DNA of 64,000 nucleotides. It comes from an uncultured Acidobacteriota bacterium (GTDB lineage: Bacteria; Acidobacteriota; Thermoanaerobaculia; Gp7-AA8). The notes beneath the pieces are model-generated. The model was not told the DNA's origin. It saw only the letters and a list, made by a program, of their open reading frames with translations, and made no database searches. Where the stretch lies: positions 768,001 through 832,000 of the forward strand of contig CAVUKB010000005.1 in assembly GCA_963741955.1 (NCBI GenBank). The letters are read 5' to 3'. Below are positions 58,058 through 64,000 of this stretch, piece after piece. A program made the position numbers and the translations under genes. Position 1 is the first letter of the stretch. Each line of letters starts with the position of its first letter.

Positions 58058-59176
58058 ATGGGTCAGAGCCCGCAGGTGTCCCGACGCATGTTCGCCCGCC
58101 TTCTGGGCGCAGGAGCGGCGCTGGCCGCTGTGCCGTTCGACCTGAGATCCGGAACAGAGCCCGCGGCAGTTCCGGAAGTGGGTCCGCTGCGCCTCTCCTA
58201 CAACGAGAACCATTACGGGCTGTCGCCGTCGGCCCGAGCCGCGCTGGCCTCGCTCTCCGACTCGGCCTGGATGTACCCGGACGAGCACGAGGAGGCGCTG
58301 CGGGTCGATCTCGCGCGAGCGAACGGCGTGAAGGCGGAGTGGATCCTTCTCGGCAACGGCTCCTCAGAAGTCCTGCAGCTGGCCGCGCTGGCCGCACTCT
58401 CCCCTTCTCGAAGTGTCGTGATGGCCAACCCTACCTTCGAGCTCATGGCGATGCATGCCGCGGCCGTCGGCGCGAAGATCGTGAAGGTGCCCCTCACCAC
58501 CGACTGGGCCCACGATCTCCCCACAATGGTGAAGGCATCGCCGGGCGCGGGGATCCTCTACATCTGCAACCCGAACAATCCGACGGCGTCGATCACACCG
58601 AAGGAAGTGATCCGTCAGGCGATCGTCGACCTTTCCCCTTCCACGATGATCATCGTGGACGAGGCCTACGCTCACTATGCCTCGAACGCATTCGAATCGA
58701 TGATTCCTCTCGTTCAGAAGCACGAGAACCTGATCGTCCTTCGTACGTTTTCCAAGATCTACGGGATGGCCGGACTGCGCTGCGGATTTGCGGTGGCCCA
58801 GCCGTCCACCATCGCCCGCCTTCAGAAGCGGCAGGCGGCGAACGACATGAATCTCGCTGCGCTCCTTGCGGCGAGGGCGAGTCTGAAAGACGACCAGTAC
58901 ATTGTCGAATCACGGCGGAGAAACGCGTCCGTGCGAGCCGCGACGACGAAGAAGCTGACCGAGATGGGATTCCGGACCATCCCGTCCGAGGCCAACTTCT
59001 TCATGGTCGACCTCGGCCGTGACCTGCGGCCGGTGCGGGCTGCCATGCGCGATCGAGGCATCCTCGTCGGACGCCCCTTTTCGCCGATGATCCACTACCT
59101 GCGGGTCACGATCGGCACCGAGCCTCAGATGCGGCGCTTCCTCGAAGCGCTCGGGGAGATCACGGGAAAGGCCTGA
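58058..59176 (+). CDS. HisC-like class I/II aminotransferase with Tat signal
   Basis: SRRMF, LSYNEN, CNPNNPT, DEAY, RTFSKIYGMAGLRCG. Confidence 0.85.
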   Translation: MGQSPQVSRRMFARLLGAGAALAAVPFDLRSGTEPAAVPEVGPLRLSYNENHYGLSPSARAALASLSDSAWMYPDEHEEALRVDLARANGVKAEWILLGNGSSEVLQLAALAALSPSRSVVMANPTFELMAMHAAAVGAKIVKVPLTTDWAHDLPTMVKASPGAGILYICNPNNPTASITPKEVIRQAIVDLSPSTMIIVDEAYAHYASNAFESMIPLVQKHENLIVLRTFSKIYGMAGLRCGFAVAQPSTIARLQKRQAANDMNLAALLAARASLKDDQYIVESRRRNASVRAATTKKLTEMGFRTIPSEANFFMVDLGRDLRPVRAAMRDRGILVGRPFSPMIHYLRVTIGTEPQMRRFLEALGEITGKA

Positions 59177-59242
59177 GGGTGTCCCTCATCGGCCGTCGGT
59201 CGAACATTCGAAAATCCGGGCGGATTTGGACCGGCTTCGCCA

Positions 59243-59313
59243 GCCAAACGCCGCGCTTCAGCGGTGTTGGCGAGCGCAGCGAATCAACGTCCGCTGCAAG
59301 CGCGGCGTTAGGC
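59243..59313 (-). other. attC site 1 (71 bp)
   Basis: GCCTAAC...GTTTGGC imperfect palindrome; contains the TAA stop of the cassette gene. Confidence 0.9.
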
Positions 59314-59931
59314 GTCTTGGTTCCGACGGCGGAAGACGACGTAGGCAATGGTCGTCGCTGAGATGAAGGGGATTGCGAACACACCACCCACGAGGAGTCC
59401 CGTTGCAAGAGCAAGAAGCAGTCCCGCGGCTGGCGCAGCAAAAGCAAGCAGGTCGTCGTGCCCATTGCGTCGAAGAGAGAAGTAGATTGCAGTGAGGATG
59501 ATGAGATCACCGATGCCGACGATCGGGCGGAGCTGGCCGCCAAGAATGAAGGAGACGCTGAGGTATTGGAGCAAGTCGCTCGTGCCGGCATGGAAAGCGT
59601 GAGTGAGCTTTGCCGTGGTGCCAACTTGAGTTGAGACGATGTCTACGATCGAGGCAGCGACGGAGAAGGATACGAGTCCTGGAAGATTGCCAACCAAGGT
59701 GCCGAGAAGCGAGCCGACAGCGGCGGCGACGACCAGGATCGACACATTGGCGACCAGCGCGATGTCCGGCCGAAACACGAGGATGGCGACGTAACCGCCG
59801 AGGACGGGAACAGAGATGGCGGCGGTCTGTGGCCAGGGGAGGCGGCAGGTGAATGCCGTTGCCGCGAAAAGCAGCGCGGCGCTCGCGACGCAGACGGTGG
59901 TTGAGGTCACGACTGCAGCATCGGTGGACAA
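59308..59931 (-). CDS. Cassette: polytopic membrane protein with GxGD motif
   Basis: Fills the interval between two attC sites; IVDIV and VGIGDL motifs. Confidence 0.65.
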   Translation of the reverse strand: MSTDAAVVTSTTVCVASAALLFAATAFTCRLPWPQTAAISVPVLGGYVAILVFRPDIALVANVSILVVAAAVGSLLGTLVGNLPGLVSFSVAASIVDIVSTQVGTTAKLTHAFHAGTSDLLQYLSVSFILGGQLRPIVGIGDLIILTAIYFSLRRNGHDDLLAFAAPAAGLLLALATGLLVGGVFAIPFISATTIAYVVFRRRNQDA

Positions 59932-59934
59932 GAC

Positions 59935-59992
59935 GCGTCACGGCTCAGCATCAGCGGCGCACAGTGCCGTCCGCTGCATGCTGTTGTTAGGC
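59935..59992 (-). other. attC site 2 (58 bp, mutated R' box)
   Basis: GCCTAACAACAGCATGCAGCGG...CCGCTGATGCTGAGCC-GTGACGC. Confidence 0.8.
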
Positions 59993-60012
59993 GTCACTGT
60001 GCTCTCCATGTG

Positions 60013-60080
60013 TGGAGTTGACCCGTTTTCGTGGACTCCCTCCCCAATGTTCAGGTGTCCACGAAAACGGGTCAACTCCA
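60013..60080. mobile_element. 68-bp IS3-family-like mini-element
   Basis: Perfect 24-bp IR TGGAGTTGACCCGTTTTCGTGGAC, TG...CA ends, 20-bp spacer. Confidence 0.75.
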
Positions 60081-60109
60081 GTCTGCACAAGCGAAGTCGA
60101 TCTCCGGCT

Positions 60110-60283
60110 TGGGTATCCGAGCCCGACGCGAACCGACCAGTACTTTCCGACCCTCTTGAAGTGAAGTGACGGATGCCTCGGGTTTGCGCGCAAAAGCTCG
60201 GAATTGCTTCGAGCGAGCTGTTGGATTTCGACGGGAAGCTGCTCGAAATAGTCCCAGAACTCGGGCGAGGTGTGGTGATTCAA
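60110..60283 (-). pseudogene. Truncated RelE/ParE-like toxin
   Basis: FWDYFEQLP...NPRHPSLHFKRV...WSVRVGLGY, then loses similarity and reads into the IS end. Confidence 0.75.
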
Positions 60284-60480
60284 ATAGGACGACTCTTGCC
60301 GGCGCGATGATCAGCAAGCGCCTGATTCATGAGCCGGTCGAGCTTGCCGGTTTCTGAATCCTGCTCGATCTGCCGGTCCCACTCTTCCCAGTCCTGCTCC
60401 AACAGCCAGTCCCTGAGCTCCATAAACTCCTCAGGGGTAAGGCTTTGGATCTGCTGCTCAATTTGTTCGACTCTGGTCAT
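60280..60480 (-). CDS. Putative antitoxin (addiction-module-type)
   Basis: 66 aa, WEEWDRQIEQD..GKLD; ATGA overlap with the toxin. Confidence 0.75.
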   Translation of the reverse strand: MTRVEQIEQQIQSLTPEEFMELRDWLLEQDWEEWDRQIEQDSETGKLDRLMNQALADHRAGKSRPI

Positions 60481-60520
60481 ACCTTCACCAAAACAATCCT
60501 ACCGGATTCGAGCTTCCGCC

Positions 60521-60626
60521 GCCCGTCGGCCCGCGGTTCACCGGCGTGGACCGCGCTGGGATCACGCGGGCTCTTCGAGAACCAGTAAAGCAGCGGTTCG
60601 CGTCCGGTGCAACCGCTCAGATGGGC
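60521..60626 (-). other. attC site 3 (106 bp, both R boxes mutated)
   Basis: GCCCATC...GCGGTTGCACCGG...CCGGTGAACCGC...GACGGGC. Confidence 0.7.
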
Positions 60627-60630
60627 GACT

Positions 60631-60846
60631 CTACGCGTAGCGCAGACGCCGACCTTTGGCCTCAGGAATGGAATCACCGTGCTCGCGAGCGGTCTCCAGC
60701 CAAAGCGTGATCGCGCCCTGCGCGTTGGTCAGAGCGTCCGAGTGAGAAGAGCCATGAGCCATGCAGCCAGGAAGTTCCGGGACATCGGCGATGAATGCCT
60801 GATCTTCGTCGCTCCAGAAAATGATGATTTCGTACCGGTTTGTCAT
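60631..60846 (-). CDS. hicB: HicB family antitoxin
   Basis: YEIIIFWSDEDQAFIADVPELPGCMAHG...IPEAKG. Confidence 0.93.
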   Translation of the reverse strand: MTNRYEIIIFWSDEDQAFIADVPELPGCMAHGSSHSDALTNAQGAITLWLETAREHGDSIPEAKGRRLRYA

Positions 60847-61102
60847 TGGTCATGTCCCGCCAGGTTGTACTTCAAGATCACTGCCCGGACCTGTTTGACT
60901 TGATAGGGTTTCGCATTTCGCCCATCACGCTGCAGGTTGATCCGTTCCTCGACACCTGACTTCCCGAACAGATGATGGCTGGCTATTGTTCTCTCGTCGA
61001 ATCCCAGCGAGAGAAGGAGTCCGCGAAGGTCGTCGAAGTCGACGTTCGCGTCAGCGCGACCAACCGGAGGACGTCCGCAACCAACTTGTCGCGTCTCGTC
61101 AC
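60843..61102 (-). pseudogene. hicA: Frameshifted HicA family toxin
   Basis: GTG 61102 gives MTRRDKLVADVLR, out of frame with GRADANVDF...SHHLF...AKPYQVKQV (260 nt in total). Confidence 0.75.
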
Positions 61103-61140
61103 GAAGCGAGGTTACCACGCGGTCGCCTTCTCGCCGAGTC

Positions 61141-61210
61141 GCCCAACGGCCCGCGCTCATCGGCGGGCCGAGCGACGCGAGGCCCGTCCGCGTACAGCGC
61201 GTTGTTAGGC
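61141..61210 (-). other. attC site 4 (70 bp)
   Basis: GCCTAAC...GTTGGGC. Confidence 0.9.
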
Positions 61211-61229
61211 GACATGACCCATCTCCGTG

Positions 61230-61787
61230 TCAGGGCGCGCGCCGGTAGTGCATTGCGACCGCGCCGTTGCGGAGCGGCTTCGACGAGATCAACTCGAGCC
61301 GTCGCGTGCTGAGCAGCCCGCTCGCGTACAGGGTCGGGCCGTGGCCGGCGATCATGGGATGAACGAGCAACTTGTACTCGTCGATCAGATCCAGCCGGTC
61401 CAGCTCGGTCGCGAGCTTGCCGCTACCTAAGAGTACGCCGTCCGGGGTCGCGTCCTTGAGCTTTTGTACGCCCGTGCGCAGGTCGCCGGCGACGTGGTGG
61501 CTATTGGTCCACGGGAAGTCCTTTCGCGTCGAGGACACCACGTACTTCGGCTTGGCCTCCAGCTTGACCGCCCACTCGCGCATCGACGGCGGCGCCTCCT
61601 CGTCGCCGCGAGCGACCGCTGGCCAGTATCTCTCCATCATCTCGTAGGTGACGCGGCCCCACAGCATCGCCCCGCTCTCGTCCATGAGGCGGGTGAAGAA
61701 GGCGCGTGTCTCGTCGTCGGCGATTCCTTCCTGGTGGTCGACGCAGCCGTCCAGGGTGATGTTGATGCTGAAGGTCAAGAGTCCCAT
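61230..61787 (-). CDS. Cassette: RibD C-terminal / dihydrofolate reductase family protein
   Basis: ITLDG, GRVTYEMM, KPKYVVSST, LIDEY, GHGPTL; GGAGG RBS. Confidence 0.9.
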   Translation of the reverse strand: MGLLTFSINITLDGCVDHQEGIADDETRAFFTRLMDESGAMLWGRVTYEMMERYWPAVARGDEEAPPSMREWAVKLEAKPKYVVSSTRKDFPWTNSHHVAGDLRTGVQKLKDATPDGVLLGSGKLATELDRLDLIDEYKLLVHPMIAGHGPTLYASGLLSTRRLELISSKPLRNGAVAMHYRRAP

Positions 61788-61875
61788 GGTGTCCTCCGGT
61801 CCAGATACGCGACGAACCGCTCGTCGTCTGGCCCCAAGGGCACGAGCCCAATTCGCGAGGTACTCACTCTGTGTC

Positions 61876-61977
61876 GCCTAACGTTCAAAGCTCACCGGCT
61901 TCGAGCCGCACGCGACATCCTAGCATCGGCGACGCCGCAACGCGCGGCTCGAAGTCCGGTGCAGCGACAAGTTAGGC
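61876..61977 (-). other. attC site 5 (102 bp)
   Basis: GCCTAAC...GTTAGGC; TTCGAGCCGC arms. Confidence 0.92.
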
Positions 61978-62460
61978 CACGCCTCCTGGGAGTTCCGTCT
62001 CGGAGGATCCGGCGAGCGCAATCGAAACGGCGGGAAAGGTGTCGCTGGGTTTGAGCTTCGTGGCATTCCACTGAACGTACCTGGCCGCTGCGATGGTGAC
62101 GTGGTCAGGTGCGAGCGTCGCGTCGCGCGGTTGGGCCACCTTAAGGTGCATGGAGAAGCCGTCGGACGCGGTAAAGAAGAGATGAATGCCGAAGCTGATG
62201 ACGTTGACCGACGAGAGGATGAGCGTGGTTCCTGGAGTGTCGGGCGGCGGCGCACCCCACAGCCGAACCTCCACAACGTGATTTCGGAAGCGACCGAGAG
62301 TTCGGGTAAGCGGTAGCCGGGAGGTCGCGAGGCTTGTCGCGAGGAAAAGCAGAGGCAGCGGTGCAAGGACGAAGAAAATCGTTTGCTCCGTCACCAAGCC
62401 GAGCGCCACGGCGGATGCGCCGAGCAGGGAGAAGAGGATGCGAGCAGGTAGTGGACGCAT
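61972..62460 (-). CDS. Cassette: hypothetical membrane protein
   Basis: Two N-terminal TM segments; stop codon inside the attC R'' box. Confidence 0.65.
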   Translation of the reverse strand: MRPLPARILFSLLGASAVALGLVTEQTIFFVLAPLPLLFLATSLATSRLPLTRTLGRFRNHVVEVRLWGAPPPDTPGTTLILSSVNVISFGIHLFFTASDGFSMHLKVAQPRDATLAPDHVTIAAARYVQWNATKLKPSDTFPAVSIALAGSSETELPGGVA

Positions 62461-62488
62461 AGAGGATGCCGCACGAGTCTCCGGCGTG

Positions 62489-62592
62489 GCCTAACGCCAG
62501 CGCTGAGCCGCTTCAACGCGCACGCGCCGCATAAACACGATATCAGAACCTGGTGTTGCGCGTTGAAGGCGGCTCGAGCGCGATTGTTAGCC
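62489..62592 (-). other. attC site 6 (104 bp)
   Basis: GGCTAAC...GTTAGGC; CTTCAACGCGCA arms. Confidence 0.92.
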
Positions 62593-62934
62593 GGCGGCGA
62601 GCAACGCCTCTACAACCCGTCGGCTCTCTGGGGAGACCGCGAGCAGGCCCGTACGGATGTCTTGGCGAGTCAGCTCGAGGAGGCGCCGCTCCTCGGCCGT
62701 GAGCGACGAATACCGTATTCCGATGATACGCAGGTCGGCCTCCACGGTGCGAGATGCAACCGGTGCCGCGCTCGGTGCCACCTTCGCTACATCTCGAGCG
62801 ACCGCGATATCTCTGGCCAAGGTTGCGAAGTTCCGTTCACGAACACTGGATCTTTCGAGAACGATGCCCGTGCCGAGCGAGCACGCGACTCCGATGAGCA
62901 GACCTACGAGAAGACTTCCTCTGGAAATTTGCAT
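62587..62934 (-). CDS. Cassette: hypothetical exported or membrane protein
   Basis: AAAGGA RBS, N-terminal hydrophobic segment; stop codon inside attC. Confidence 0.6.
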   Translation of the reverse strand: MQISRGSLLVGLLIGVACSLGTGIVLERSSVRERNFATLARDIAVARDVAKVAPSAAPVASRTVEADLRIIGIRYSSLTAEERRLLELTRQDIRTGLLAVSPESRRVVEALLAAG

Positions 62935-63029
62935 TTGCGATCCTTTGCGGATTCGATGGCTTCTCTCCTGCGACGAAGGGCGGAGAAGAAGGTTTCGGCA
63001 AGGAGGCCAGAAGCGGTCGATCACCCGCC

Positions 63030-63104
63030 GGCTAACGGCTGGCGTTCTGCCGCGGGGTCCCGAGCGTAGCGAGGGCCCCGTCGGTCAGCAACGCTGATTT
63101 AGCC
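63030..63104 (-). other. attC site 7 (75 bp)
   Basis: GGCTAAA...GTTAGCC imperfect palindrome. Confidence 0.85.
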
Positions 63105-64000
63105 GGCCGATCCTCCGCCTGTGTGCGTTGGACCATCGTCAACGAGGGCACCCACGGCAAGCAGCCACGATGGCAGCGGAACCGAGCAGCCGTGCATGTG
63201 CTGAAAGATCCGCTTCAGTGTTCGAAAGGTCGCCTTCACGCCCTTCTCGAGTTCATCGTGATCCAGATCGTAGACAATGGCAAGTTTGTCTCTGCCGCCA
63301 TACTTCTCGGGAACGGACCACGGCGAGGGATGCATCAGCGCATCCCGAATGTGCTTGGTCTGCATGATCGCCTGGACATCCGCGTCCTGCTCGTCCCATA
63401 GCTCGATACCCGTCAAGATCCGCGGGATTCTGACGAGGCGATCCCGGAATGTTGGGCCTGCATCCTCGACGGTCCTCCGATCCTTTGATGAAAGTTGGCT
63501 CACGCGTTCGCTCTCGAGCTTCTGCAATCTCCACGCGAGCGCGGCGAGGTGTGCTTCCACCAGCGATGAACACGCGACGATGCCCCAGCGACATACGGCG
63601 GCTTGGCGCCGCGCGACGTCTTGACTTTGGACCCAGTCCTTCTTCAGCGTGGGGTCGAACGCACCAGAGAAACGTGCCAATGCTTGGCTGAGCTCGCGCG
63701 CTTCGGCTGTGGCCATCACGATGTCGTTGGCGAAGTGCCATTCGGGATACTGATATCTCAGGCCAAGTAGAGTGATACTGATCGTCGCGTGAAAGGGTCT
63801 TTCTTGGTCTCGCCCCTTGCTCGTTTCTCGGCGGACGGGGGCAAATCGCGCTTCAAAGTCGGACATCGGCATGCGCAAACCAAGAGGGATTCCTGACTTG
63901 ATCTCCTGAAACAGGGCTTCGAAGACCCCTTCCGTTGCGCCAGCAAAGAAGAAGCGACTGAAGCCGACGACCAGTTTTCTCACCCGTTGCTTTGCCGTCG
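63099..64000 (-). CDS. Cassette: hypothetical protein with HEPN-like R-x4-H motif (5' end may lie outside the window)
   Basis: SLVEAHL and IRDALMHP; frame stays open to the window edge; stop codon inside attC. Confidence 0.65.
   Translation of the reverse strand, partial: TAKQRVRKLVVGFSRFFFAGATEGVFEALFQEIKSGIPLGLRMPMSDFEARFAPVRRETSKGRDQERPFHATISITLLGLRYQYPEWHFANDIVMATAEARELSQALARFSGAFDPTLKKDWVQSQDVARRQAAVCRWGIVACSSLVEAHLAALAWRLQKLESERVSQLSSKDRRTVEDAGPTFRDRLVRIPRILTGIELWDEQDADVQAIMQTKHIRDALMHPSPWSVPEKYGGRDKLAIVYDLDHDELEKGVKATFRTLKRIFQHMHGCSVPLPSWLLAVGALVDDGPTHTGGGSAG

Follow-up and report, generated by a model that had tools for sequence, protein, structure and literature searches.

Evidence for a complete, sedentary-type chromosomal integron of 31 cassettes in an uncultured Thermoanaerobaculia bacterium

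The last 4.8 kb (positions 59243-64000) of a 64,000-nucleotide stretch of Acidobacteriota DNA, referred to below as the window (contig C5, positions 768001-832000, + strand), carry seven imperfect palindromes, each lying directly after a minus-strand gene. The initial annotation described them as attC sites of an integron gene-cassette array, and this raises the question of whether the array belongs to an integron whose integrase gene, intI, lies beyond the window or whether it is a CALIN, a cluster of attC sites lacking an integrase of its own. The source genome is 99.1% complete (5.44 Mb in 16 contigs). We conclude with high confidence that these 4.8 kb form the end farthest from the integrase of a complete chromosomal integron of the sedentary type, which spans about 26 kb (C5:827243-853398) and has 31 cassettes. 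A passage of PMC4889954 defines a sedentary chromosomal integron by more than 19 attC sites or by presence in all genomes of a species, and the count of 31 sites places the present array in this class.

The initial annotation had given a position to the right of 64000 as one of two possibilities for intI and attI. Searching the whole genome with TIGR02249, the NCBIfam model of integron integrases, gave one match above the cut-off (466 bits versus 265), at C5:852424-853368 on the minus strand. It lies on the same contig, 20.4 kb right of the window end and 1.2 kb past the last attC site, within an uninterrupted open reading frame (ORF) of 390 aa at C5:852226-853398, minus strand (84226-85398 in window-equivalent positions). 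Residues 12-323 of the predicted protein align with IntI4 of Vibrio cholerae (2A3V) at an E-value of 8e-92, through the IntI-specific segment, and the catalytic positions R, K, HxxR, H and Y are all kept in this alignment. Against the NF011946 (PRK15417) equivalog the protein reaches 372.6 bits, below the cut-off of 435; judged by its sequence it is an IntI, though one outside this equivalog. Nothing in the reading frame suggests a pseudogene, and the enzyme may well be active at present.

The attC sites were scored with R1, a covariance model derived from 15 sites, none of them in the window; the whole window and C5:826001-860000 were scanned with filters off. In the latter region R1 finds 31 attC sites between C5:827243 and 851042, all on the + strand and at cassette spacing throughout, with lengths of 58-130 nt and a mean column identity of about 61%. 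The minus-strand score of each site is 30-60 bits lower, as expected of a palindrome with its bulges on a single arm. Among the 25 pairs in the RNAalifold consensus of the 15 outside sites, 17 show compensatory changes. A terminal helix of 7 bp, a spacer without pairing and three 6-bp helices parted by two single bulges on the 3' arm make up this consensus, which is the published attC fold. It can be seen from the minimum-free-energy DNA folds that two single-base bulges on the 3' arm are present in 27 of the 31 sites, 23-25 and 16-18 nt from the + strand 3' end, the first bulged base being mostly T and the second C or G. This placement marks the + strand as the one that folds (bottom strand), with the cassettes reading toward lower coordinates on the minus strand; the longest ORF lies on the minus strand in every cassette except cassette 29 (30/31). 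From about position 140 kb to the contig end the GC skew of the C5 + strand is negative; given the usual G-rich leading strand, the + strand would serve as leading-strand template and the attC bottom strands would lie on it. A part of PMC5371416 gives the same placement for 25 of 30 sedentary chromosomal integrons and states that it limits excision. Early scans by regular expression and folding had missed degenerate sites and called false ones, and were replaced by R1; the false calls dropped were those at 836860-836999, 841158, 834200-834306 and 846163-846288, together with nested 58-nt stems.

Seven of these sites lie in the window. Site 1, the last of the array, is found at 59243-59313 (71 nt; R1 48.6 bits; boxes GCCAAAC and GTTAGGC). 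The short site 2, at 59935-59992 (58 nt; 31.0 bits), has CAC instead of AAC as its left core, and 5 nt outside its box still pair with the R'' flank of cassette 1 itself. Site 3, at 60521-60626 (106 nt; 65.0 bits), has non-canonical cores on both sides, GTC and GAT. Then follow site 4 at 61141-61210 (70 nt; 38.9 bits), site 5 at 61876-61977 (102 nt; 54.3 bits; 3'-arm bulges of T, 23 nt from the end, and C, 16 nt from it), site 6 at 62489-62592 (104 nt; 67.9 bits) and site 7 at 63030-63104 (75 nt; 37.5 bits), whose R'' core is TTT instead of GTT. All are on the + strand, with R1 E-values between 4e-6 and 3e-16; in the remaining 59 kb or so of the window the best match on either strand has 18.5 bits (E 0.012). 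The seven palindromes of 58-106 bp annotated from 59243 onward thus agree in coordinates with sites that the model scores at 31.0-67.9 bits. The position after minus-strand genes was found for 7/7 sites, and the stop codons said to lie inside the R'' box are there in five (TAA at 59308, 59987, 61972, 62587 and 63099), those of the other two genes being 5 and 20 nt off. The canonical cores of the RYYYAAC...GTTRRRY-type ends, which had been ascribed to the sites as a group, are lacking in three of the seven, sites 2, 3 and 7. A search of 58500-64000 against Rfam gave no matching family, with three chance microRNA matches at E 1.6-8. The differences among the sites had been taken as a hint of diverse donors. 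As a general statement this was not supported: all seven fit one model made from the rest of the array, and the arrays of relatives reach 89.6 bits with the same model, which speaks for a single attC family, typical of the lineage and variable in length. Direct evidence of presence in other arrays was obtained for cassette 7 alone.

The borders of the cassettes provide further evidence. The steps of the mechanism rest on established integron biology: the + strand of attC would form a hairpin that has an R box of 7 bp, a spacer left unpaired and a pair of bulged bases, IntI would cut within the AAC core, and the cassettes would leave as circles and re-enter at attI, so that the first bases of a linear cassette would be the last six of its own R' box. 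Once cassettes stand in a linear array, the six bases past the cut belong to the next one; the R'' box of a cassette should therefore pair best with the first bases of that same cassette. Complementarity between own ends averaged 10.13 of 12 positions (7 in the box and 5 in the flank; 30 cassettes) versus 8.00 of 12 when the ends were paired in array order (31 sites), and none of 10000 random pairings reached the own-end value, either for the box or for the flank. In the window, cassettes 1 to 7 score 10, 6, 11, 11, 12, 12 and 9. The four own-end matches quoted in the initial annotation were recovered, with 12/12 for cassettes 5 and 6, 11/12 for cassette 4 and 11/12 for cassette 3, the last with GAT instead of GTT in R''. 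Taken together, the IntI, the 31 attC sites and the own-end pairing bear out its claim of an integron cassette architecture.

Two cassettes carry signs of movement. Cassette 6 (62495-63035, 541 bp, with a minus-strand ORF of 145 aa at 62587-63024) is duplicated as cassette 14 at C5:837734-838274. The two copies are identical at 539 of 541 positions, and the identity is bounded by the predicted crossovers plus two conserved core bases on each side. The difference at just two positions indicates that the duplication is recent. Cassette 7 begins at 63036 and runs through the window end at 64000 to window-equivalent position 64198; it holds a minus-strand ORF (63099-64172, 357 aa) that has no family and contains an invariant RDALMH. 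Matching words were present in 22 sequencing runs, 19 of them with about 6-7% of the words. Of these 19, three from three other studies, namely X2 (compost), X7 (manure) and X20 (sheep gut), were compared, and the rest give no evidence on habitat; stretches uncovered in the three are no evidence of absence, and contig depths were not used. Contigs of all three runs match cassette 7 at 97-98% identity from the window end to 63028 or 63042, with mismatches at 22/973 positions in X2, 19/959 in X7, and 15/551 and 4/421 in X20. They diverge at the left box of the attC site: AACGGCT is kept, beyond which X7 reads ...CCCCTAAC and X20 reads ...TGCCTAAC; X2 retains CCGGCTAAC, and the sequence left of that differs from our own. 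The divergent RYYYAA boxes at the edge of cassette 7 elsewhere are CCCCTAA and TGCCTAA. This result indicates that the same cassette stands beside different neighbours and that the break falls at the recombination core. A joint in X7 (58316 to 63010) was ignored, one of its sides being 21 letters long, and two joints in X2 (61213 to 61670 and 61409 to 61692) were left unused, as they come from fragmentary contigs of cassette 4 homologues at 90-93% identity.

The sole run that covers the stretch in full is X1, from soil; as probably the source sample, it gives no independent support. Its short-read contigs show six breaks in 59905-63037, five of them within an attC site. The duplication of cassettes 6 and 14 accounts for two; the others could reflect shared site sequence or population variants.

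Does the integron still recombine? The array may have been built by IntI and then have become a frozen relic, with no recombination now taking place in the lineage and the sites persisting as terminator-like hairpins. We consider this unlikely, though several features agree with it. Canonical cores on both sides are present in 27/31 sites, the deviants being sites 2, 3, 7 and 26; the core triplets are thus mutated in three of the seven distal sites versus one of the 24 others (hypergeometric p about 0.03, calculated by hand and post hoc). The mutated cores suggest that window sites 2, 3 and 7 probably no longer recombine and that the far end is partly frozen. Moreover, the toxin-like ORF of cassette 2 is without the C-terminal part of its relative, and no excision joint was seen. 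These features are set against an intI that is a full open frame with its catalytic motifs kept, against the canonical cores of most sites, and against the closeness of the two copies of cassette 6 (2/541 differences) and of cassette 7 to its copies in other arrays (2-3% off). Besides the mutated cores, other observations count against our preferred interpretation as a complete integron with moving cassettes. R1 derives from the same array, although from outside the window, and hence is no independent standard. No circle, no excision joint and no transcript was seen, the sole run with the locus being X1, which consists of contigs and is probably the source sample. Most sites have C as the bulged base closer to the R box, whereas a figure legend in PMC5371416 gives a conserved G for published mobile-integron sites. 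At about -0.02 the GC skew of C5 is weak, and its interpretation takes for granted that the leading strand has the usual excess of G. Finally, there is no genome of the same genus among the 40 relatives, and the nearest metagenome relative of the flanking gene is 52% identical.

A CALIN, which the initial annotation had offered as an alternative, is very improbable. It would agree with the lack of an integrase within the window and with the existence of two integrase-less clusters elsewhere in the genome (C1:390421-394263 and C5:486028-492170). However, sites continue at cassette spacing to C5:851042, and intI follows 1.2 kb on, on the same contig; an attC array unbroken from the window to intI is not a CALIN, and this holds unless the contig is chimeric within C5:832000-852000. 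Still less credible is that the palindromes are not attC but other intergenic palindromes (REP/REPIN-like repeats or terminators): cassette 2 does contain a non-attC hairpin, but there is one site per cassette, in a single orientation, the AAC/GTT cores are conserved, the bulges are confined to one arm, the stems are kept by compensatory change rather than by sequence identity, sites across the genome cluster at the integrase, and R1 finds sites beside intI in 30 of 80 unrelated loci.

Outside the array, R1 at E <= 1e-4 finds in the genome just the two small clusters and two single sites. In the cluster at C5:486028-492170, which has no IntI, five attC-model matches score 23-65 bits, every one of them on the minus strand. 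Within it lies a 282-aa Xer-like recombinase (C5:488031-488879) with a TIGR02249 score of 181 bits, below the cut-off, in which the IntI-specific segment is missing. This recombinase was rejected as the driver of the cluster: it adjoins an IS91-family transposase (367.8 bits) and is therefore more simply taken as part of an inserted insertion sequence. Probably the locus is an insertion sequence inserted into a CALIN. The cluster at C1:390421-394263 has six matches of 19-69 bits on the + strand, no integrase was found nearby, and it carries a DUF4386 paralogue of cassette 8 at 37% identity.

Both ends of the integron can be placed. On the far side the array is bounded by a chromosomal gene for a class I/II aminotransferase (58058-59176, + strand, 372 aa; PF00155, 163.4 bits); the array ends at 59243, 67 nt past this gene, and left of the gene the R1 scan of the whole window gave no attC match. 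GC content at third codon positions is 0.81 in the aminotransferase gene versus 0.68-0.78 in most cassette ORFs. On the other side, beyond intI, are a SWIM-domain gene and a SNF2 helicase gene. The array-flanking genes have no match in 20 loci of relatives. For attI we used the rule that the own start of the first cassette should resemble the reverse complement of the R'' flank of site 31. The candidate junction that it yields, ...GCCCCTAA followed by C, lies between C5:852199 and 852200, about 26 nt past the intI stop, with a box match of 6/7; intI was located beyond 64000, as in one of the two alternatives of the initial annotation, and attI as a candidate whose exact position may shift. A relative, G030, whose IntI is 66% identical over all 390 residues, has the same junction arrangement with an own-box match of 7/7, and the 45 nt ahead of the junction are largely identical in the two genomes, CTACAATCGCT included. 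A promoter-like TTCTCA-17-TACAAT (9/12, minus strand) stands 14 nt ahead of the junction. It is the sole one in 2.9 kb, where 0.8 would be expected by chance, and is kept in G030 and absent from another relative, G032. We regard it as no more than a lead to a promoter reading into the cassettes, which might be transcribed in this way.

The orientation of intI defines the layout. It is on the minus strand at 852226-853398, and the cassette ORFs, also on the minus strand, lie at lower coordinates past its 3' end. This co-directional layout is the 'inverted integrase' type, one of two known integron layouts according to a passage of PMC13323075; IntIs of the inverted kind make up a sub-clade within the soil/freshwater clade, as a part of PMC8352920 describes. 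When R1 was applied to 80 loci around IntI relatives (47-65% identity), sites were found in 30, of which 11 were co-directional, 18 divergent and one (L059) mixed; when it was applied to 14 larger stretches, each around an intI from the same family, order or class, sites were found in eight, seven co-directional and one divergent. A quick maximum-likelihood tree of IntI was made from the 38 rows with clear orientation, loci without matches and L059 being left out. All 19 co-directional IntIs, our own among them, belong to a single 21-row group (SH-aLRT 83, not starred), and the orientation label changes three times on the tree versus a mean of 13 in shuffles. The orientation in relatives and the published descriptions together indicate that the inverted layout is lineage-typical and already known. 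An integron integrase above the cut-off was present in 18 of 41 related genomes, counting our own; within the same family the figure was 9 of 24. This tally includes G035, which is unpublished. In one relative of the same order (L104, G032:C1:4400-13300), R1 gives 18 matches of 100-102 nt and 62-87 bits in 8.4 kb beside intI, an array far more uniform than the present one. As to the relationship of the source genome, the C-terminal 705 residues of RpoB are 74% identical to those of two Acidobacteriota metagenome-assembled genomes (MAGs), versus 64% for an Eisenbacteria MAG and 54% for a Gemmatimonadaceae MAG; the value for a Blastocatellia MAG is 66-78%, in two pieces.

One feature sets this IntI apart within the tree. 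A C-terminal tail of exactly 67 residues past the catalytic domain (IntI residues 324-390, C5:852226-852426) occurs, among the 38 IntIs, in our own, in G030 and in that of G032 contig C13, and these form a starred clade of three rows; in the two relatives the tail lies at L103:9275-9475 and at about L105:10430-10630. Its middle is variable. By contrast its final 12 residues, YWxKxVRFLxF(R/H), show conservation, the codons differing by synonymous changes, and the tails of the three IntIs end in YWSKLVRFLNFR, YWTNFVRFLTFR or YWTKIVRFLGFH. The tail ends 16-26 nt ahead of the candidate attI crossover in this sub-clade. A search with the tail alone gave no match but itself. A joint reading, tentative and rather doubtful in our judgement, would be that this sub-clade of three families in one order gained the tail as a new accessory module, binding the integrase to its own site or to a host factor in co-directional integrons, and that at least one cassette, cassette 7, is exchanged among soil, compost, manure and gut communities.

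The cassette genes in the window are small and for the most part without a family, and all lie on the minus strand. Cassette 1 has one ORF of 207 aa (59308-59931) that has no family and whose stop lies inside R''. Cassette 2 carries a pair. Its toxin-like ORF (59987-60283, 98 aa, no family) shares 61% identity over 54 aa with an ORF of 85 aa that a relative carries in a cassette (locus L113); the match covers 54 of the 85 residues, and the C-terminal part has no counterpart. The antitoxin-like ORF (60280-60480, 66 aa) is 45% identical over 66 aa to a 66-aa ORF upstream of the toxin-like one in L113. Over the 3' end of the toxin-like ORF there is a perfect long hairpin in the DNA fold (60010-60085, 74 nt; arms of about 24-26 bp; -34 kcal/mol, z -8.95, 0/200 shuffles as good). 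It is not an attC site (R1 11.8 bits), and its 53-nt core has one further copy in the genome, 100% identical and 204 kb away at C5:1032460-1032512. In cassette 3 a HicB-like antitoxin (60631-60846, 71 aa; PF15919, 44.7 bits, cut-off 27) follows an ORF of 91 aa from GTG (60843-61118) without a family, which overlaps the hicB start by 4 nt and which, from its position, may be a HicA toxin. Cassette 4 encodes a protein of 185 aa (61230-61787) with a RibD C-terminal, dihydrofolate-reductase-like domain (PF01872, 58.1 bits); it has a 46% paralogue at C5:496221-496751 and a weak 30% match in L011. The ORF of cassette 5 (61972-62460, 162 aa) has no family, and its stop is inside R''. The cassette 7 protein has no match in Pfam (E <= 10), NCBIfam, PADLOC or PHROGs, and a profile search against solved structures gave weak matches only (E >= 0.009), to unrelated proteins. 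It is found in 11 protein clusters, all unnamed, the Atlas likewise yielded no named cluster, and its RDALMH might be a HEPN-type Rx4H motif.

A similar picture was obtained for the whole array. Of 38 ORFs compared with Pfam, 27 have no family at E <= 0.01 and eight score above a family cut-off, two of these lying in the window (RibD_C and the HicB-like antitoxin) and the others being DUF4386, DUF6650, DUF6064, a ParA-like AAA_31 ATPase, a DNA methylase and YggL. PADLOC gave a type II methyltransferase (155.9 bits) in cassette 17 (2.5 kb, C5:839364-841850) and weak HNH matches in cassette 13. After the methyltransferase, cassette 17 has a 336-aa ORF without a family, and the two may be a restriction-modification pair in cassette form. 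Clear relatives (45-61%) in the 20 loci of relatives were found for 3 of 36 cassette proteins, that is, the cassette 2 pair (L113) and cassette 9 (L104).

What this locus adds is a complete, well-resolved integron of 31 cassettes with both ends defined, from a poorly studied soil lineage, with internal signs of cassette movement in the form of an exact duplication and a cassette common to other habitats. It also supplies a concrete IntI, a candidate attI and a set of attC sites of the inverted type that are suited to a laboratory recombination assay. The understanding of integrons is left unchanged; the element is an ordinary gene-capture element of known type. The remark that such arrays are little characterised in this lineage stands for the class Thermoanaerobaculia, for which none of the papers found deals with such arrays by its title. 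It fails for the phylum, because integrons of Acidobacteriota and inverted IntIs are already published: a passage of PMC8618304 lists integrons in Acidobacteriota, and a part of PMC8352920 shows that an Acidobacteria-specific attC model exists.

Compared with known systems, the integron agrees with the Acidobacteria integrons of Ghaly et al. 2021 (PMC8352920) in phylum and in its chromosomal attC arrays. With inverted-integrase integrons in general it shares an intI that is read toward the array; it differs in that the present IntI, like those of G030 and G032, has the 67-residue tail, whereas the other 35 compared IntIs are without it. The chromosomal integron of V. cholerae (IntI4/VchIntIA) resembles it in having an intact IntI, aligned here over 312 residues, in its long array of more than 19 sites with mostly unknown small genes and toxin-antitoxin cassettes, and probably in having its bottom strands on the template of the leading strand. 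By contrast, the V. cholerae intI has the opposite orientation to the present one, its cassettes number in the hundreds versus 31 here, and the present attC sites, unlike those of V. cholerae, are not near-identical repeats.

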